A DNA stretch of 64,000 nucleotides from Escherichia phage vB_EcoM_ESCO10: sequence record OM386655.1; one strand, given 5' to 3'. Numbering within the stretch: the first letter of the stretch is position 1; each line of letters begins with the position of its first letter. Shown piece by piece: positions 20,809-41,311 of the stretch. The translations under genes and the position numbers were made by a program. The notes beneath the pieces were generated by a model that was given only the letters and a program-made list of their open reading frames with translations, ran no database searches and was not told the DNA's origin.

Positions 20809-21218
20809 TGCTTTATCCTATGTTGGGTATTCCAAGGTGGATTAAATTTCTTTATGAACATTGGCTCTTCAAGAGACATGGTCTCAACTGACATAGTTCC
20901 AAGTTCGTTAGTCATTGACAGATTAAAGCACTGCCGTGCATAGAACTCTACCTTTTTACCTGCCATTAATGCTTCATGAATCAGAATGGACTTAGTCGAA
21001 TCTGACGTTTGGTCCTTACGATTAATAGCGGTTCGGTAGTAGTTGATGCGCTTACGAAGATTTTTAGTCTTCCCGACGTAGACTAGTATATCATCAACCG
21101 CTATAGCATATATGACATTTTGTTTATTTGGTACTGTGAGTGGAGCTATGGTGGCGTCATCTTGGAGTTCTAGGGTGACGTACTTGATAAAGCTAAATTC
21201 GTCTGCGATTTCTTTCAT
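20805..21218 (-). CDS. denA: endonuclease II (GIY-YIG family)
   Basis: Internal Met MKEIADEFSFIKY.. matches recalled T4 DenA (VIYAIA..YVGKTKNLRKRINYYR); the track N-terminal extension reads through the hairpin at 21227..21240. Confidence 0.8.
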   Translation of the reverse strand: MKEIADEFSFIKYVTLELQDDATIAPLTVPNKQNVIYAIAVDDILVYVGKTKNLRKRINYYRTAINRKDQTSDSTKSILIHEALMAGKKVEFYARQCFNLSMTNELGTMSVETMSLEEPMFIKKFNPPWNTQHRIKQ

Positions 21219-21226
21219 AGCAATAA

Positions 21227-21240
21227 GGGGCCGAAGCCCC
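21227..21240 (-). promoter_or_regulatory. UUCG-tetraloop hairpin GGGGC-uucg-GCCCC between nrdB and denA
   Basis: Perfect 5-bp GC stem in the 27-nt intergenic gap. Confidence 0.4.
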
Positions 21241-21245
21241 ATTCC

Positions 21246-22424
21246 TTAAAAATATTTCTTGTATGATGCCATTACTTTTTCATCGACATCATTATCAATT
21301 TGTGCTACTAAGTAAGAACTGATTTCCACTTCCTGAGGAGCTGCCTGTACTGCATCAGAGTTCAGGTATTCGCGAATCCAAGGGTAAGGATGTCGAGTAG
21401 GGGCATCAGTAATTGGACACGGTAATCCACACTGCTTCATACGCGAAACAGTCAAGTAATCGACAAAAGCACCCATGTTCTGGGTATTTAATCCTGGGCA
21501 GGTACCATCTTTGAATAGGTGAGCGGCCCATTCTTTTTCTTGTCGGTTAACTTCCATGAAAATATCAACTGCTTCTTGTTCACATTCTTGAGCAATTTTA
21601 ACCCATTCATCGCCATCTGTACCAAGTTGAAGTTGACGAATAATGTACTGAGTACCTTTAAGGTGGAGCTGCTCATCGCGTGCAATGAACTTCATAATCT
21701 TGGCATTACCTTCCATGATTTCCATGTTCTTATGGAAGTTAAAGGTGCATGCGAAAGATACGTAAAAACGAATAGCTTCCAAGGCGTTGATTACGTGCAG
21801 GCAGAGGTAAAGAGAACGCATTAGTTCACGTTTCCAATACATCTCATGCTCTATGGCATCTTCATTATCATCTTCGTCTGCGTTAATTTCTTTTTGGTAC
21901 TCAATATCAGCTTTAGCATTCTGCCAATATCTAGTTTTCTTTAAAACATCGTCATAATAACGACCAATAGATTCAGCACGTTTCATGATGGCGTCATCTA
22001 ACAGAATTTCATCAAATACCTTAGATGGGTCTGTATAGAGGTTACGCATGATATGGGTATACGAACGGGAGTGAATAGTTTCACTAAAGGTCCATGTTGC
22101 CACCCAAGTATCAAGGCTAGGGTCTGAAATCAAGGCCTGAAGTGCTGCAGAAGGAGCACGTCCCTGGATACTATCCAGAAGTGATTGATACTTCAGGTTA
22201 TTGGTAAAAATATTTTGCTGGAATTGTGGAAGCTTATTAAATTGAGCAGCATCCATCATCAAGTTAACTTCTTCTGGGCGCCAGAAAAAACTCAACTGCT
22301 TTTCACAAAGCTCTTCGAATACTTTATGACGTTGGATATCATAACGAGCAATACCCAATCCTGAACCAAAGAACATCGGTTCGACTAAAACATCAACTGG
22401 GGTGGTATTAAAAACTGTAGACAT
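21246..22424 (-). CDS. nrdB: ribonucleotide reductase small subunit, uninterrupted
   Basis: Strong similarity to recalled T4 NrdB starting at MSTVFNT; track start at 22454 adds 10 residues; no intron. Confidence 0.85.
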   Translation of the reverse strand: MSTVFNTTPVDVLVEPMFFGSGLGIARYDIQRHKVFEELCEKQLSFFWRPEEVNLMMDAAQFNKLPQFQQNIFTNNLKYQSLLDSIQGRAPSAALQALISDPSLDTWVATWTFSETIHSRSYTHIMRNLYTDPSKVFDEILLDDAIMKRAESIGRYYDDVLKKTRYWQNAKADIEYQKEINADEDDNEDAIEHEMYWKRELMRSLYLCLHVINALEAIRFYVSFACTFNFHKNMEIMEGNAKIMKFIARDEQLHLKGTQYIIRQLQLGTDGDEWVKIAQECEQEAVDIFMEVNRQEKEWAAHLFKDGTCPGLNTQNMGAFVDYLTVSRMKQCGLPCPITDAPTRHPYPWIREYLNSDAVQAAPQEVEISSYLVAQIDNDVDEKVMASYKKYF

Positions 22425-35319: not shown

Positions 35320-36447
35320 ATGGAAAGATTTATGGCTGAATTTGGACAAAACTATGTTCAAATTCCTGTATTATCTGAAAATAACGCCGTTCGATATAAA
35401 CTTAGTATAGCAGGGAGCTGTACTAAGTCTACCGTAAAGGCTTATGTTAAATTTCAAGATGAGGTCTTCGGACCTCAAAACTTTTTACCAGGGCTTAATC
35501 TTGTTGAAATAGACCCTGTAACTAACACAATAACGGCCTCTAAGAATTACCAGCTTACAAGTTCCCATGATACTATATCTCAAGCCTTTATAACATATGT
35601 GAACTCTATTCCGGCCAACAGAATAGTTTGCTTAATTTCCTCCGGAAGGCTATTTGCTTCACAGACATTAATAGATTGGTTTAAGGCTGCTGGAAGTACG
35701 GTATTTCCGGATAAATGGCTTATTGATAAAGTAGAACCAAGTTATTCGGCTTTTTATGTTTCGGGTCGAAATGCTATAGTAAAAGAGCATGTGCTTTATA
35801 ACGATGGCATTTTGGTTGAAGATGTATCAACCCCTTTAGAAATGGTTTATGACACTATTAATGATGTAGGAGCCACAGGATTCCCACTTCGTATTATAGA
35901 AGATGAAACCGAATACTTTAGTAGCGGAAGCCAAGAAATTAAACGTTTCCCTACTTCAGAGACCATAACTCCTATGGCAAATTATAATATGAAACCTGGT
36001 GATTGGTTTTATATTAAATTCCAAAGTAATTATGATGCTGCATTGAAGGCTGAAGGAACAACCCAAGTTTCAGTTAGGTTCTTTAATGGGCTTTCATTAA
36101 TCCAGTCCACTGATATGGATATTCCTGTGGGCGCCGGTTCTCCTCCAGCAGGAGCATGGATGAGTTTTGAGCGTTATATTCAAGCCCCAGCAAATTCTGA
36201 CGGATTCACAGTTTATGCTCGTAAAACGGTAAATGTGGGTATTGGCGGTCTTAGAAATATATCATTCGGTGAAATATCCTCGCAAGAACCTCAACCTAAA
36301 GATGCTGAAATCGGTGTGAATGGTATGCGTATGAACTTTGGTACAGAAACACTTAACTTGGCTCCTGATTTGATTTCTCAGTTGAATGATAAAGCTAGTG
36401 GTTATGCAGGCAAGGTATTTGCTGCAGAGTTTAAAGAAAAATATTAG
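35320..36447 (+). CDS. 35: long tail fibre hinge protein gp35
   Basis: Track ORF 35293..36447 overlaps gp34 3' end; ATG at 35320 follows RBS AAGAGG and gives MERFMAEF.. (375 aa; T4 gp35 is 372 aa). Confidence 0.65.
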   Translation: MERFMAEFGQNYVQIPVLSENNAVRYKLSIAGSCTKSTVKAYVKFQDEVFGPQNFLPGLNLVEIDPVTNTITASKNYQLTSSHDTISQAFITYVNSIPANRIVCLISSGRLFASQTLIDWFKAAGSTVFPDKWLIDKVEPSYSAFYVSGRNAIVKEHVLYNDGILVEDVSTPLEMVYDTINDVGATGFPLRIIEDETEYFSSGSQEIKRFPTSETITPMANYNMKPGDWFYIKFQSNYDAALKAEGTTQVSVRFFNGLSLIQSTDMDIPVGAGSPPAGAWMSFERYIQAPANSDGFTVYARKTVNVGIGGLRNISFGEISSQEPQPKDAEIGVNGMRMNFGTETLNLAPDLISQLNDKASGYAGKVFAAEFKEKY

Positions 36448-36462
36448 GAACCTTCGGGTTCC
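36447..36462 (+). terminator. intrinsic terminator GGAACC-ttcg-GGTTCC plus T-run after gene 35
   Basis: Perfect 6-bp stem, UUCG loop, followed by TTTTTCGTTTC; overlaps gp35 stop. Confidence 0.6.
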
Positions 36463-36474
36463 TTTTTCGTTTCT

Positions 36475-36482
36475 ATAAATAC
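36475..36482 (+). promoter_or_regulatory. late promoter TATAAATA for genes 36-37-38
   Basis: Exact late consensus 23 nt upstream of gp36 ATG; no separate late box found before 37 or 38. Confidence 0.6.
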
Positions 36483-37172: not shown

Positions 37173-40100
37173 ATGGCTACTTTAAAAGCGATACAATTTA
37201 AAAGAAGTAAGACAGCTGGTGCCAAGCCTACTGTAGACCAGTTGGTTGAAGGTGAACTGGCTATTAACTTACGCGACCGTACGATTTATACAAAAACCGA
37301 CCAGAATCAGATTATTGACCTTGGCTTTGCTAAAGGTGGACAGGTTGATGGTGATATTCTCCAGAACGGCACATTTAACCTCAATGGTAATATGTTCGTT
37401 TACGCTGGTAAGTATATTGAATTCCTGCCTAAAACTGCGGGTAATGGCGCCTGGGCAAACCAACATTTAACTAAAGCTCCTATCTTTGCAGATTTAAGTT
37501 CAACTGCCTCAGTATCAGAATATCATCCTCTGATTAAGCAACGTTATAAAGACGGTACTTTTTCTGCTGGTACATTAGTAAGCGAAGGCTCATTTAGAGT
37601 TCATTATATTGATTCTACAGCTCCAGACAATTCTAAACACTGGGTCTTTAATCGAAATGGTAATTTCATCGTAGATTCTGGTAGTATTGAAGTTCGTACC
37701 GGTAATATTTCTGCTTCAGGCAATATTAACTCTGCTAATGGTATTATCACTGGTCCTGAAATTGTTACTAAAAATATTAATTTCAGTACAAAACCATTTA
37801 TAGCTAATGCCAACATTGGATATGATTGGGTTTCTTTACCTACTTGGGTTTATAACCCACCGGCTGATGGTTCTGATAATACTACTAACGGTTTAAACTA
37901 TTTGCGTAAATTGCGTGCATCAAGTGCATCAAGTATTTTCCATGAAATTGCTGATTGTCGAAAAGGCAAGCCACAAGAAATTTCCTGGTGGACCGGTGTA
38001 GGTCCGGCATCTTTCCAATGGGCGTTTGATACCTCTGGGCGTATTACCGCAGGTAAATCTATTTCAGTAGGTCTTCCTGATAACGGGGCAAATGGGCGTT
38101 ATCCTTTAGATTCAGCTATTTCTATTGGTATTGCCATCGGTGATAACGATACAGGTATTAAATGGGTCCGTGACGGTGTTTACGACCTGATGGCCAATGG
38201 TATTTCATCTGCTACTATTTTGAATAACGGTATTAATAGTACTAAAAAATTGATGGTTGGTTATAGCCGAGATTCAGGTTCTACTTGGGATTTCCCGAAT
38301 AATAACCAAGCAATGTTTACTGCGCGTACTGATGTTGATGGCAATAATAACGGCGATGGTCAGACTCATATCGGTTATAGCAGCAATGCTAAAATGTATC
38401 ACTATTTCCGTGGCGCGGGTCGTATGTCCGTTAGTATGGCCGAAGGGCTTATTGTTGAACCAGGAATTTTAGATATTAAAACCGGTTCCAATAGCGTTGC
38501 TATTAGAGCGGACGGAACAATTAACTCCACCCAGCGTATTTCTATGCGTACGGGCTTGTTTTTAAATGGTGATGATAATACTAATGCTTTATCGTTTAAA
38601 GCGCCTTCTGGTGTTGATGGTACTAAAACTATCAATTGGGACGCGGGTATTCGTAACGGTCAAAACAAAAACACTGTAACACTTAAAGCTTGGGGTAATT
38701 CATTTAATGCAGGCGGCGGTAACAGAGAAACTGTATTTGAAGTATCGGATTCACAAGGTTATTATTTTTATGCCCAGCGTACCAATCCGGCCGTTGCCGG
38801 AGGTATAGGACCTGTCAACTTTAAGTTTAACGGAACTATTGAAACAGGTCATATCATAGGCCTTGGTGATATTACTGCTTCCGGTACAGGTTCTTTTGGT
38901 GGCAATGTTACCATGACTAATGGCCTGTTTGTCCAAGGTGGTTCTTCTATTACCGGCCAAGTTAAAATCGGTGGAACAGCTGATGCATTAAGAATTTGGA
39001 ATGCTGAATATGGCGCTATTTTCCGTCGTTCCGAAGATAAGCTTTATATTATTCCAACTCCGCAGAATGCTGGAGAATCAGGTGGTATTTCTAATTTACG
39101 TCCGTTCTACATTACATTAAGTACTGGTCAAGTTTCTATGGACCATGTAGTAGATATCGGCGGTGGTAGATTTAAAGTAGATACAACTGGTACTACGGCT
39201 GGCCAACGTATTACAGTTAATGCAGCAAGCGATGCTGTTGTATTAAATGCCCCTAATCAAGAATCATCCAACTTTATCCAGGGTCGTAAAGCCAATGTTA
39301 CTAAATGGTATCTTGGTATTGGCGATGGTGGTAACGTTGTTCGTATGCACAACTATACATATGCGCACGGTATTGCGTTGAATGCTGATACTGTTGATAT
39401 AACCAAGGCGCTTAAAATTGGTTCCGATATTCGTATTGGTCTTGATGGCAATATTACAGGCAGCACTGCATTAGAAAACTTTAAAAACCTGAACACCACT
39501 TTAAACCGTAAAGTTAATGTCGGAACTTGGTCGGGTGGTGCGGCTGCGGGTTGGTATAAATTTGCTACTGTAACTATGCCTCAAAGTGTGGCTACTGCCC
39601 AATTTAAAATTACTGGCGGTAACGGATATAATGTCAATTCATCGGAACAAGCCACAATTACTGAAATAGTTCTTAGAACTGGTAATAACAACCCTAAGGG
39701 TATTAATGCCACCTTATGGGCGCGCACAGGTAATGGATTTACTAATATAGCAACAATTAATACCTCCGGCGATGACTATGATGTTTACCTATACGTTGGA
39801 ACTTACGCGGACAAACTTATAGTCGAATATGATTATACAGCAAACACCCGTTATATTTCGGTAGTCGGTCTTAATGATGTGAATCAAACCCCAGTCGCGG
39901 AATTACCTACTGGTCACCAGCGCGGACAAGTGTATATGATGTATTCTGATGCTCAGATACCTTATCCGGTGGGTGCTCCGATTCCATGGCCGAGCGATTC
40001 AGTTCCAGCCGGATTTGCTTTAATGGAAGGTCAAACCTTTGATACCGGAGCTTATCCTAAACTAGCTGCAGCTTATCCGTCGGGTACTATTCCGGATATG

Positions 40101-40721
40101 CGTGGACAGACTATTAAAGGTAAACCAAGTGGTCGTGCAGTGTTGAGTGCAGAAGCTGATGGTATTAAGTCTCACAACCATGGCGGCTCTGTTGCGAGTA
40201 CTGATTTAGGTACTAAAAACACCTCATCATTTGATTATGGTACTAAAAACACCTCATCATTTGATTATGGTACTAAAACCAGCAACACAACAGGTAACCA
40301 TAACCATAGCGTTAGTGGCAATACTGGCGCAGCAGGTAATCATCAGCACTCACAGACAGGTCCAAGAGGTCCTAATAATCAACCAACAGGAATATTTCCT
40401 AATGGAGCTACTCAAATTAGTGGAACCCAGGTTGTTTCTTTTGGCATAAGCAACGGTGTTGTGCCTGGTGTAAACCAATATATTGCAAAGTCATCGACAG
40501 AAGGTAACCATACACACTCTTGGTCTGGAACTACAAATACCACCGGTAACCATGCCCACACCGTTGGTATCGGTGCTCATAGTCATTCGGTCGGTATTGG
40601 TGCTCATAGTCATTCGGTTGCAATCGGGTCCCACGGTCATGGTCTTACCATAAATAGTACAGGTAATACAGAAAACACGGTTAAAAACATTGCTTTTAAC
40701 TATATCGTTCGCTTAGCATAA
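37173..40721 (+). CDS. 37: long tail fibre distal subunit gp37 (receptor-binding tip)
   Basis: 1182 aa; Gly/Thr/Asn-rich beta-structure; C-terminal His-x-His repeats (GNHNHS, GNHQHS, GAHSHS) as in the T4 gp37 needle domain; RBS AGAGG. Confidence 0.8.
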   Translation: MATLKAIQFKRSKTAGAKPTVDQLVEGELAINLRDRTIYTKTDQNQIIDLGFAKGGQVDGDILQNGTFNLNGNMFVYAGKYIEFLPKTAGNGAWANQHLTKAPIFADLSSTASVSEYHPLIKQRYKDGTFSAGTLVSEGSFRVHYIDSTAPDNSKHWVFNRNGNFIVDSGSIEVRTGNISASGNINSANGIITGPEIVTKNINFSTKPFIANANIGYDWVSLPTWVYNPPADGSDNTTNGLNYLRKLRASSASSIFHEIADCRKGKPQEISWWTGVGPASFQWAFDTSGRITAGKSISVGLPDNGANGRYPLDSAISIGIAIGDNDTGIKWVRDGVYDLMANGISSATILNNGINSTKKLMVGYSRDSGSTWDFPNNNQAMFTARTDVDGNNNGDGQTHIGYSSNAKMYHYFRGAGRMSVSMAEGLIVEPGILDIKTGSNSVAIRADGTINSTQRISMRTGLFLNGDDNTNALSFKAPSGVDGTKTINWDAGIRNGQNKNTVTLKAWGNSFNAGGGNRETVFEVSDSQGYYFYAQRTNPAVAGGIGPVNFKFNGTIETGHIIGLGDITASGTGSFGGNVTMTNGLFVQGGSSITGQVKIGGTADALRIWNAEYGAIFRRSEDKLYIIPTPQNAGESGGISNLRPFYITLSTGQVSMDHVVDIGGGRFKVDTTGTTAGQRITVNAASDAVVLNAPNQESSNFIQGRKANVTKWYLGIGDGGNVVRMHNYTYAHGIALNADTVDITKALKIGSDIRIGLDGNITGSTALENFKNLNTTLNRKVNVGTWSGGAAAGWYKFATVTMPQSVATAQFKITGGNGYNVNSSEQATITEIVLRTGNNNPKGINATLWARTGNGFTNIATINTSGDDYDVYLYVGTYADKLIVEYDYTANTRYISVVGLNDVNQTPVAELPTGHQRGQVYMMYSDAQIPYPVGAPIPWPSDSVPAGFALMEGQTFDTGAYPKLAAAYPSGTIPDMRGQTIKGKPSGRAVLSAEADGIKSHNHGGSVASTDLGTKNTSSFDYGTKNTSSFDYGTKTSNTTGNHNHSVSGNTGAAGNHQHSQTGPRGPNNQPTGIFPNGATQISGTQVVSFGISNGVVPGVNQYIAKSSTEGNHTHSWSGTTNTTGNHAHTVGIGAHSHSVGIGAHSHSVAIGSHGHGLTINSTGNTENTVKNIAFNYIVRLA
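40209..40279 (+). repeat. 30-nt perfect tandem direct repeat (2.4 copies) inside gp37 C-terminal region
   Basis: ggtactaaaaacacctcatcatttgattat x2 then a partial copy; encodes GTKNTSSFDY GTKNTSSFDY GTK. Confidence 0.8.
40553..40633 (+). repeat. three degenerate 27-nt tandem repeats encoding V/AGIGxHxHx units in gp37 tip
   Basis: gttggtatcggtgctcatagtcattcg / gtcggtattggtgctcatagtcattcg / gttgcaatcgggtcccacggtcatggt. Confidence 0.75.
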
Positions 40722-40751
40722 GGAGAGGGGCTTCGGCCCCTTCTAAATATG
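40722..40751 (+). promoter_or_regulatory. gene 38 translation-initiation region: SD GGAG separated from AUG by a UUCG hairpin (split RBS)
   Basis: GGAG at 40722, hairpin GGGGC-ttcg-GCCCC at 40727..40740, ATG at 40749; linear SD-AUG spacing about 23 nt. Confidence 0.55.
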
Positions 40752-41291
40752 AAAATCTATCATTTTTATTTCGATACAAAAGAATTTTACAAAGAAGAAA
40801 ATTACAAACCGGTTAAAGGTCTTGGTCTTCCTGCTCATTCAACAATTAAAAAACCTTTAGAACCTAAAGAAGGATACGCAGTTGTATTTGATGAACGTAC
40901 CCAAGACTGGATTTATGAAGAAGACCATCGAGGCAAACGTGCATGGACTTTTAATAAAGAAGAAATTTTTATAAGTGACATTGGAAGTCCGGTTGGTATA
41001 ACTTTTGATGAGCCGGGCGAATTTGATATATGGACAGATGATGGCTGGAAAGAAGATGAAACATATAAACGAGTAATGATTCGCAATCAAAAAATCGAGG
41101 GGTTTTATAAAGAATTCCAGGTATTAAGTAATATGGTTGAAGCCTCAGTCGCCGATAAGAAAGAAAAATTCTATCACCAGAATCTTAAACGTTTCTTTGC
41201 TCTTTTAGAAAAACATGAACACTTGGGTGGTGAATTCCCGGCTTGGCCAGAAAAAGATAAAAAGCCTTGGTATAAGTGCTTTTTCAAATAA
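40749..41291 (+). CDS. 38: tail-fibre assembly chaperone gp38 (T4-type)
   Basis: 180 aa; very high similarity to recalled T4 gp38 (MKIYH.YFDTKEFYKEENYKPVKGLGLPAHSTIKKPLEPKEGYAVVFDERTQDWIYEEDHRGKRAWTFNKEEIF...). Confidence 0.9.
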   Translation: MKIYHFYFDTKEFYKEENYKPVKGLGLPAHSTIKKPLEPKEGYAVVFDERTQDWIYEEDHRGKRAWTFNKEEIFISDIGSPVGITFDEPGEFDIWTDDGWKEDETYKRVMIRNQKIEGFYKEFQVLSNMVEASVADKKEKFYHQNLKRFFALLEKHEHLGGEFPAWPEKDKKPWYKCFFK

Positions 41292-41303
41292 TACTTCTAT
41301 ATT

Positions 41304-41311
41304 ATAAATAT
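41304..41311 (+). promoter_or_regulatory. late promoter TATAAATA for holin gene t
   Basis: Exact late consensus 18 nt upstream of t ATG. Confidence 0.6.

Follow-up and report, generated by a model that had tools for sequence, protein, structure and literature searches.

Gene 38 of bacteriophage T4 has a Shine-Dalgarno sequence (SD) and an AUG start codon that are parted by a stable hairpin, which brings the two elements to a functional distance (PMC3014915; PMC7297116). This arrangement has been called a 'split' ribosome-binding site (RBS) and is attributed to Gold 1988 and Nivinskas et al. 1999 (as cited in PMC3014915 and PMC7297116). Structure is reported to cut the spacing from 22 to 5 nt for gene 38 and from 27 to 11 nt for gene 25 (PMC3014915). 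Gene 25, at the 26-25 junction, likewise features an intercistronic hairpin between SD and AUG, and its split RBS lies at a different locus and has a different sequence from that at the 37/38 junction (Nivinskas 1999; Malys & Nivinskas 2009). Gene 25 is backed by mutational, reporter and DMS evidence, whereas the enhancing role of the gene 38 hairpin is termed 'suggested' (PMC7297116). As for destabilizing mutations, the attributable evidence concerns gene 25, and the sentence that reports it in PMC3014915 names no gene. A stable stem-loop is also tolerated by the 30S subunit in the TIRs of Escherichia coli rpmE, thrS and fis, where it helps to arrange the recognition elements (PMC7297116), but in those cases the hairpin lies between an enhancer and the normally spaced SD downstream of it rather than between an SD and its AUG.

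Here we describe the junction between genes 37 and 38 within a 64,000-nt stretch of DNA from Escherichia phage vB_EcoM_ESCO10 (OM386655.1), which we refer to as the window. Judged by its sequence, this junction is an orthologue of the T4 gene 38 split (noncontiguous) initiation region and hence an element that is already known. The window and resequenced T4 (MT984581) have identical 27-nt spacers, and the two loci share the same genes, the same position and an AAGGAG that overlaps the stop codon, with a C(UUCG)G hairpin, A/U linker and AUG after it. A reading of the window from its letters alone (the sequence-only reading) had invoked T4 gene 38 as a precedent, which is confirmed by both PMC3014915 and PMC7297116 and by the identical spacer. 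While the element itself is no different from that of T4, the genome that hosts it is Dhakavirus-like rather than T4, with approximately 90% identity to IME281, IME08, JS10 and C6. The published change from 22 to 5 nt traces to the old reference NC_000866, which lacks one C of the 3' arm of the hairpin.

Results

Gene 37 (37173..40721, + strand) encodes the distal long tail fiber subunit of 1182 aa, an assignment based on its open reading frame, Pfam and DNA matches. The C-terminal 273 aa of gp37 match the Pfam family Collar (PF07484), and the DNA of the gene matches annotated gp37 of VR7, T4 and C6. Gene 38 (40749..41291, + strand) encodes a T4-type tail fiber assembly chaperone of 180 aa. 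No Pfam family matched gp38 at E <= 0.001, and its identification is based on 91.7% identity to annotated T4 gp38 (residues 1-180) together with tblastn matches to Tfa proteins, including 26-28% identity to those of the lambda type. The flanking genes are homologous to lambda stf-tfa, with approximately 80% DNA identity across the gp37 C-terminus up to the stop codon. However, the lambda junction is a stop/start overlap (TAATG) without a spacer, a hairpin or a separate SD, so the spacer is specific to the T-even phages.

The nearest late-promoter motif upstream of gene 38, TATAAATA, is located before gene 36 (36474..36481, + strand). No other TATAAATA motif was found between 36481 and 40749, and the next one lies at 41303-41310, before gene t. 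Because gene 38 is without a promoter motif of its own, it would be read from a late polycistronic 36-37-38 mRNA. The sequence TCTAAATA at 40742-40749, which has one mismatch to the motif, was rejected as a late promoter for gene 38, since the resulting transcript would start inside the gene.

The junction begins with the gp37 stop codon UAA (40719-40721), which forms the 5' border of the element, shares its frame with gene 38 and lies 30 nt upstream of the gene 38 start. The SD, AAGGAG (40720-40725, with GGAG at 40722-40725), overlaps this stop codon as UAAGGAG and is the sole anti-SD match in 40700-40760. Next is the hairpin (40726..40741), which consists of a 5' arm (AGGGGC, 40726-40731), a UUCG loop (40732-40735) and a 3' arm (GCCCCU, 40736-40741). 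Its core is five G-C pairs formed by 40727-31 with 40736-40 (GGGGC-TTCG-GCCCC, 40727-40740), preceded by A at 40726. The segment TTCTAAAT (40741-40748) separates GCCCC from the gene 38 ATG (40749-40751), and the A/U-rich linker UCUAAAU (40742..40748), which is without an SD, connects the base of the helix to the AUG. All of these features are on the + strand. The linear spacing from the last G of GGAG to the A of ATG is 23 nt, which leaves a residual spacing of 9 nt when the 14-nt hairpin is subtracted or 7 nt when the 6-bp helix A40726-U40741 is subtracted. The sequence-only reading had proposed the order GGAG, hairpin GGGGC-ttcg-GCCCC and ATG, with a linear spacing of about 23 nt reduced to about 9 nt by folding; each element is present where that reading placed it, and both counts are correct, with 7-9 nt remaining once the helix is discounted.

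We also examined the signals that could initiate gene 38. The anti-SD duplex at 40718-40726, for which AUAAGGAGA is the only SD match, has a predicted energy of -9.3 kcal/mol, and from 40728 to the AUG nothing pairs with the anti-SD at -3.5 kcal/mol or lower. The gp37 TAA closes the upstream frame and is followed by no in-frame start ahead of the gene 38 ATG, and the next in-frame ATG, GTG or TTG within gene 38 is codon 110. Consequently, an alternative start codon or an upstream extension of gene 38 was rejected, as none exists. The start coincides with that of annotated T4 gp38, with identity from residue 1. A conventionally spaced in-frame start, which the sequence-only reading had named as an observation that would refute it, was not found, and the anatomy it described stands. 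As in a split RBS, the SD lies more than ~15 nt from the AUG, neither a conventional SD nor another start is available, and the hairpin lies wholly between SD and AUG with a residual spacing that falls within ~5-11 nt. In a crude census of the window, 25 of 80 ORFs were without a strong proximal SD, which indicates that SD-poor initiation is not rare in this phage genome; the census is too noisy to make gene 38 an outlier by the absence of an SD alone. A RegB site was considered for the GGAG and rejected, since it is followed by the AGGGGC stem rather than by an A-rich tract (consensus GGAGRAYARAA) and the gene belongs to a late unit; late transcripts are reported to be RegB-resistant (PMC3014915).

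RNA folding, the check proposed in the sequence-only reading, predicted the hairpin in every context folded, in both MFE and centroid structures, with core pair probabilities of 0.99-1.0 in contexts of 100-300 nt. The predicted energy was -9.6 kcal/mol for the core alone and -11.2 kcal/mol with the A-U pair included, and the outer pairs showed probabilities of 0.8 (A-U) and 0.45 (the G40725-U40742 extension). Single-sequence z-scores were modest (-1.8 to -2.3), with 4-11 of 200 shuffles folding equally well. Perfect all-G/C 5-bp stems with 4-nt loops occurred four times in the window against 0.22 expected, and a strict scan for SD, hairpin and ATG over the 64 kb on both strands returned only the 37/38 site at a gene start, its two other matches preceding ATGs that were read as internal to longer ORFs. 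In the MFE folds, the stem is lengthened by weak G-U and A-U pairs that GGAG forms with the pyrimidine tract downstream, and the predicted unpaired probability in naked RNA is 0.2-0.3 for GGAG and 0.05-0.2 for the AUG. With GGAG unpaired only ~20-30% of the time, the structure could also damp initiation. An outer helix that pairs the gp37 stop with the start (CAUA/UAUG) was dropped, as PhiZZ30 and ESCO47 do not conserve it. A search of 40500-41000 against Rfam returned no match at E <= 1.

For comparison with relatives, we examined 26 related junctions of the T4 type, which were drawn from four genera plus metagenomes. The sequence TAAGGAGA, which includes GGAG, is invariant in 26/26 junctions, and the search patterns did not demand it. 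The hairpin is kept in all 26, with stems of GGGGC/GCCCC, GGGAC/GUCCC or GGGCC/GGCCC and loops of UUCG, UUCU, UUAU, UUAG or GUUA. Across these variants the linear spacing ranges from 22 to 27 nt, and the residual spacing, which corresponds to the linker, is constant at 6-9 nt. In the junction alignment, 96.9% of stem cells are paired; pair counts were taken from a fixed-register 20-nt alignment, and MAFFT put the stem off by one column. One stem pair covaries, appearing as G-C (4 rows), A-U (3) and C-G (1), and this support is modest, as it consists of one pair among eight distinct rows and 25-41 of 500 shuffles reach the observed values. An exact 30-nt search of IMG/VR returned no match, and a looser anchor at the gp37 end recovered only two viral and five metagenome loci, so the covariation sample stays small. 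Taken together, the stem enrichment, the conservation, the covariation and the unique match in the strict scan led us to reject a chance origin of the hairpin.

A similar hairpin is also present at junctions of another type. In the T2-type phages JS10, RB51, PhAPEC2, CGG4-1 and Matisse, which encode an adhesin gp38 unrelated to the T4-type gp38 of the window, a hairpin of GGGGC-UUNG-GCCCC or GGGCC-UUCG-GGCCC is kept directly after the gp37 stop. However, the SD of these junctions (GGAGG or AGGAG) follows the hairpin and lies 5-8 nt before the AUG, which makes the RBS contiguous. A function besides bridging must therefore account for the retention of the hairpin, and its conservation alone is no proof of folding-dependent translation. 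The sequence-only reading had taken conservation of the arrangement to imply that translation depends on mRNA folding; the conservation was borne out in the 26 relatives, but the implication does not follow, because T2-type junctions retain the hairpin as well. Variants of the loop and stem are common to the cassette types within genera. This gene 37-terminal hairpin may predate the split site and travel independently of the gp38 type.

T4 reportedly carries C(UUCG)G hairpins between its cistrons, and the 37/38 hairpin is likewise a C-G closed UUCG on a G/C stem in an intercistronic position. Counting stems of at least 5 bp with G-U pairs allowed, we identified 11 UUCG hairpins in the whole window, nine of them between genes; the 37/38 hairpin is one of these and belongs to the class of intercistronic UUCG hairpins that is common in T-even genomes. 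Among the others, a recognizable SD follows the hairpin in three cases and a U-run in four. Only 37-38 and nrdB-denA have an SD in front of the hairpin. The nrdB-denA junction (21248-21216, minus strand) displays the same stop-SD-hairpin-AUG layout, and its hairpin is GGGGC-UUCG-GCCCC in the window, GGGCC-GCAA-GGCCC in T4 and GGGAC-UUCG-GUCCC in RB69. We found no description of the nrdB-denA case in the searchable literature. Among Tevenvirinae genomes, the T4-type 37/38 junction matched about 260 records, the T2-type junction about 240 and the denA junction about 980.

Discussion

We consider it probable that this split initiation region serves gene 38, with its SD and AUG bridged by the hairpin as in the T4 orthologue. 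At 23 nt from the AUG, AAGGAG would be too distant to function if the RNA were linear. The C(UUCG)G hairpin, which spans 14-16 nt, is predicted to form essentially always and would loop out of the path from SD to AUG. In the folded RNA, the SD would adjoin one side of the helix base, with the AUG 7 nt beyond the opposite side, such that the AUG could enter the P site of a 30S subunit paired with the SD. Ribosomes that end gp37 must melt the hairpin, since the SD directly adjoins the gp37 stop, and their release takes place over the SD itself, which makes some coupling to gp37 translation likely. We infer that the fold is required, and not merely tolerated, for gp38 translation, and that gp38 translation is coupled to that of gp37. 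The junction would offer a natural example of a 30S subunit that can accommodate a stable helix between SD and AUG. The hairpin itself is probably older and more general than the split site: it lies at the end of gene 37 in T-even phages regardless of the gene downstream, and the T4-type cassette exploits it, with mRNA 3'-end or terminator-like functions as candidate roles of its own. That the hairpin is kept even with a contiguous RBS is a caution that conservation of a structure is not evidence of structure-dependent translation.

A different explanation, which we regard as possible but doubtful, is that the hairpin is mainly a 3'-end element of gene 37 that serves as a barrier to 3' exonucleases, as a partial terminator that sets the ratio of gp37 to gp38, or as both. 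The ribosome would then tolerate the hairpin, and the split RBS would be a by-product of joining a Tfa-type gene 38 to a pre-existing junction. Consistent with this explanation, a hairpin of the same sequence lies 2-7 nt past the gp37 stop in both cassette types across five genera, and the 18 nt GAGGGGCTTCGGCCCCTT are common to T4-type junctions and the T2-type phage RB51. Within the window, the intergenic majority of UUCG hairpins (9/11) mostly lie within ~16 nt of the preceding stop, and several are followed by U-runs or a normal SD. In addition, Mosigvirus variants carry UUUUUAUAAU after the stem, which contains the at least 5 U in 8 of an intrinsic terminator, and in G2469 and G2285 they carry a terminator annotation. 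However, the tail in the window, UUCUAAAU, has 4 U in 8 and receives no call in a terminator scan, and the U-tract is not conserved across variants. A role at the 3' end also leaves the invariant GGAG and the constant residual of 6-9 nt (22-27 nt linear) unexplained, and it is compatible with bridging, so the two need not exclude each other.

Alternatively, gp38 could arise mainly by termination-reinitiation, which seems to us unlikely as the principal route. A ribosome that ends at the UAA at 40719, with the hairpin already unwound, would be held by AAGGAG and restart at the AUG 27 nt downstream, and de novo binding of 30S subunits to the folded site would be minor. The SD overlaps the stop as UAAGGAG in 26/26 relatives, and the hairpin starts 5 nt past the stop, which is inside the span that a terminating ribosome covers. 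The homologous lambda junction, with its TAATG overlap, is a classic coupling arrangement, and nrdB-denA shares the order of stop, SD, hairpin and AUG. Salmonella phage Lv5cm has a duplicate mini-ORF of 18 codons and a hairpin copy without a preceding GGAG ahead of its full-length gene 38, which would fit reinitiation, but this duplication is a single record and a possible assembly artefact. Furthermore, PMC3014915 and PMC7297116 credit the proximity of SD and AUG and make no mention of coupling. Finally, that an extended helix pairs GGAG with the UUCU/UUUU tract as a brake, hiding the SD and keeping the catalytic chaperone low relative to gp37, is improbable: the MFE structures of nearly all variants do reach into GGAG, and the low unpaired probabilities of GGAG and the AUG fit such a role, but the extension consists of weak G-U and A-U pairs with a probability of at most 0.45 that the SD/anti-SD duplex would outcompete, and destabilizing mutations at the analogous gene 25 site lower translation (PMC3014915).

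Returning to the split initiation region, the layout of nrdB-denA matches that of 37-38 and provides a lead; together with 26-25, this gives three junctions. It is conceivable, and at present quite unlikely in our estimation, that a stop, an SD, a hairpin, 6-9 nt and an AUG constitute a recurrent, portable junction design of T-even phages rather than a single case. If true, a common mechanism could operate at all three: the hairpin would be melted by the terminating ribosome and, on refolding, would hand the 30S subunit to the downstream AUG.

For annotation, these results fix the start of gene 38 at 40749 and explain the absence of an adjoining SD. In at least one public record, that of O157 typing phage 6, the gene 38 start is put at an ATG within the hairpin loop.

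Structure and start-site context of the 37-38 junction

On the plus strand, the end of gene 37 and the start of gene 38 read GCA TAA GGAG A GGGGC TTCG GCCCC TTCTAAAT ATG AAA. The stop codon TAA (40719-40721) ends a 1182-aa ORF (37173-40721) and is followed directly by GGAG (40722-40725), the 5-nt arms of the hairpin (40727-40731 and 40736-40740) flank a TTCG loop (40732-40735), and the ATG (40749-40751) begins a 180-aa ORF that ends at 41291. The sequence-only reading had counted 23 nt between GGAG and ATG in linear sequence and 9 nt without the 14-nt hairpin, and its coordinates and counts are all correct; a sixth pair, A40726-U40741, leaves a residual gap of 7 nt. Genes 37 and 38 are in frame in the window, with UAA and nine sense codons between them (40719-40751), such that readthrough of the UAA at 40719 would yield a gp37-gp38 fusion. 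This shared frame is probably incidental, because the spacer varies from 26 to 31 nt among relatives.

The upstream ORF encodes gp37, the distal subunit of the long tail fibre, with a Pfam tail Collar domain in its C-terminal part, and at the DNA level it matches gene 37 as annotated in VR7, T4 and C6. Over residues 1-180 the downstream product shares 91.7% identity with the tail-fibre assembly chaperone gp38 annotated in T4, and its identity to lambda-type Tfa proteins is 26-28%. The remainder of the window is ~90% identical to the Dhakavirus phages IME281, IME08, JS10 and C6, which together with the T4-like gp37 and gp38 indicates a Dhakavirus-like T-even phage that carries a T4-type gp37-C-terminus/gp38 cassette.

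An in-frame start with conventional spacing, which the earlier reading had named as an alternative, is absent: the frame is closed on the 5' side by the gp37 TAA 30 nt upstream of the ATG, none of the nine codons between them is a start codon, and the next in-frame ATG, GTG or TTG of gene 38 is codon 110. Scanning 40700-40760 for pairing with the 16S 3' end revealed a single stretch, AUAAGGAGA (-9.3 kcal/mol), and none between the hairpin and the AUG. The late-promoter motif TATAAATA does not occur between its copy before gene 36 (36474-36481) and gene 38, which suggests that gene 38 is most likely transcribed as part of a late polycistronic 36-37-38 mRNA; the next copy downstream lies at 41303, ahead of gene t. 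The copy at 36474-36481, the late-promoter motif of gene 36, comes directly after a UUCG hairpin and its U-run (AGGAACC-UUCG-GGUUCCU-UUUUCG; 36446-36463, plus strand) that overlap the gene 35 stop, and hairpin and motif look like a terminator/promoter pair. We also scanned both strands of the window for an SD followed within 0-3 nt by a closed hairpin, each at -7 kcal/mol or lower, with an ATG 4-11 nt past the hairpin as the start of an ORF of 50 codons or more. Gene 38 was the only match at a gene start, and we read two further matches as ATGs inside longer ORFs.

RNA folding, proposed earlier as a check, bore out the hairpin, which ViennaRNA returned in 46-, 81-, 100-, 200- and 300-nt contexts. 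Pair probabilities were 0.99-1.0 for the five G-C pairs, ~0.8 for the A-U pair and ~0.45 for a G40725-U40742 extension, and the core energy was -9.6 kcal/mol, or -11.2 kcal/mol counting the A-U pair. Single-sequence folding z-scores were modest (-1.8 to -2.3). Perfect 5-bp/4-loop hairpins with at least four G/C pairs number 12 in the window against 2.45 +/- 1.5 expected, and those with all-G/C stems number 4 against 0.22 expected.

Comparison with T4 and related phages

The same arrangement has been described for T4 (PMC3014915; PMC7297116), in agreement with the sequence-only reading. With reference to Nivinskas et al. 1999, one paper states that the distance shortens from 22 to 5 nt at gene 38 and from 27 to 11 nt at gene 25 (PMC3014915), and the other credits the gene 38 site to Gold 1988, names such sites 'noncontiguous or split' and states that a positive effect of the structure 'was suggested' (PMC7297116). 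The 27-nt spacer of resequenced T4 (MT984581) is identical to that of the window, whereas the T4 reference NC_000866.4 (junction locus L001, 372-397) reads GGGGCTTCGGCCC, with one C fewer in the 3' arm. Resequenced T4 (L027, 94-120) and nearly all relatives have GCCCC at this place. The missing C, probably due to a compression when the G/C stem was first sequenced, moves the predicted stem into another register and thereby accounts for the published values of 22 and 5 nt. Based on the spacer identity and the two descriptions, the 37-38 element is a rediscovery of an already known T4 element. We conclude that it is real and was correctly read, and that a modest lead lies in the nrdB-denA junction and the portability of the hairpin.

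We compared 26 junctions from Tequatrovirus, Mosigvirus, Gaprivervirus and Dhakavirus genomes, two IMG/VR contigs and five metagenome contigs; contigs were retrieved with a pattern ending at the gp37 stop, so the spacer was not presupposed. TAAGGAGA is invariant across all 26. The stem occurs as GGGGC/GCCCC, GGGAC/GUCCC or GGGCC/GGCCC, in which one G-C pair is replaced on both sides by A-U or C-G, and the loop varies (UUCG; UUCU in ST0; UUAU in O157 typing phage 6; UUAG in C6; GUUA in OQVL01003930). In a fixed-register alignment 96.9% of cells are paired, compared with 70-80% when the partner is shifted by one column; a shuffle control for covariation was only moderately convincing (25-41/500), because the alignment has just 8 distinct rows. 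Linear SD-AUG spacing among the relatives is 22-27 nt, but discounting the full helix leaves a residual of 6-9 nt in every case. At the sequence level, the strongest case for use of the SD across the helix comes from this constant residual combined with the invariant SD.

Two relatives have unusual junctions. In O157 typing phage 6 (L012, 385), the loop UUAU-G creates an ATG within the hairpin at which the record starts gene 38, likely a mis-annotation because the conserved ATGAAA start sits 18 nt downstream. In Salmonella phage Lv5cm (L016, 297-400), 77 nt comprising the hairpin and the opening 18 codons of gene 38 are duplicated in tandem. The SD stands in the first copy, which terminates at TAG, whereas the second hairpin copy lacks a preceding GGAG and leads into full-length gene 38. 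Unless this duplication is an artefact of assembly, it would be a natural example of gp38 that has to be made by reinitiation.

The hairpin also occurs where the ribosome-binding site is contiguous. In the Dhakavirus phage JS10, whose gp38 is the T2-type adhesin, a protein unrelated to T4-type gp38 (L028, 3785-3821), the junction reads TAATAA GA GGGGC TTAG GCCCC TT GGAGG TTTAT ATG, and RB51 (L029), PhAPEC2 (L030), CGG4-1 (L031) and Klebsiella phage Matisse (L032), also with T2-type gp38, share the order of stop, hairpin and conventional SD. In these five, GGAGG or AGGAG lies 3' of the hairpin, 5-8 nt before the AUG, and the RB51 hairpin region is identical over 18 nt (GAGGGGCTTCGGCCCCTT) to T4-type junctions. 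The hairpin is therefore conserved as a feature of the gene 37 end, with or without splitting of the ribosome-binding site. Thus, the conservation noted in the sequence-only reading holds, but its corollary, that conservation implies folding-dependent translation, is too strong.

Possible roles of the hairpin in gene 38 expression

We consider it fairly probable that the hairpin brings SD and AUG together: the 30S subunit would pair with AAGGAG at the 5' foot of the helix and find the AUG 7 nt from its 3' foot. Other readings overlap with this one rather than excluding it. Since stop and SD are fused in UAAGGAG and the stem starts 5 nt past the stop, ribosomes ending gp37 would have to open the stem and would be released on the SD, so coupling to gp37 translation likely contributes. 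It is also plausible that the hairpin protects an mRNA 3' end or acts as a partial terminator, given that UUUUUAUAAU follows the stem in Mosigvirus variants, which are annotated as terminators; the tail in the window, however, is UUCUAAAU, and a terminator scan does not call the 37-38 hairpin. Lastly, the structure may also limit initiation of gene 38, because GGAG is largely paired in predicted folds (unpaired probability 0.2-0.3), with minimum-free-energy structures reaching weakly into it.

Related hairpins and junctions

The nrdB-denA junction (21248..21216, minus strand) has the same stop-SD-hairpin-AUG design. The nrdB stop (21248-21246) is followed by GGA AU GGGGCUUCGGCCCC UUAUUGCU AUG, in full UAAGGAAU[GGGGCUUCGGCCCC]UUAUUGCU-AUG, in which the 14-nt hairpin (21240-21227) is identical to that at 37-38 and the AUG (21218-21216) is the denA start. 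The ORF 3' of nrdB encodes a GIY-YIG protein, annotated as endonuclease II in relatives. T4 has UAAGGAGU-GGGCC GCAA GGCCC-AUUUUAUU-AUG and RB69 has UAAGGAC-GGGAC UUCG GUCCC-ACUUUAUU-AUG, such that the layout is retained while stem and loop differ among the three phages. ORF calling starts denA at an ATG within the 5' arm (21242); the annotated RB69 start points to the ATG after the hairpin. We found no published description of this layout at nrdB-denA in the searchable literature.

Nine of the 11 UUCG hairpins in the window lie between genes, mostly just past a stop codon; a normal GAGGA SD comes after three, and U-runs come after four. In lambda, the stf/tfa genes share homology with the T4-type cassette as far as the stop codon, and the junction itself is a bare TAATG overlap. 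Most simply, a pre-existing junction hairpin would have been retained when a Tfa-type gene arrived, leaving the far-side SD as the functional one. Hairpin variants follow genus rather than cassette type, a hint that the hairpin serves as a joint for recombination between modules: loop UUAG is common to the Dhakavirus phages C6 (L019, T4-type) and JS10 (T2-type), and stem GGGCC/GGCCC to Mosigvirus ESCO47 (L014, T4-type) and PhAPEC2 (T2-type). This rule is not universal, as the window and phage 04086 (Dhakavirus) carry UUCG. Two identical intercistronic hairpins, GGAGGC-UUCG-GCCUCC, lie on the minus strand at 49392-49377 and 11465-11450; their 5' arm is SD-like and their 3' arm anti-SD-like, and downstream of each come a GAGGA SD and, 12-14 nt past the stem, an ATG.
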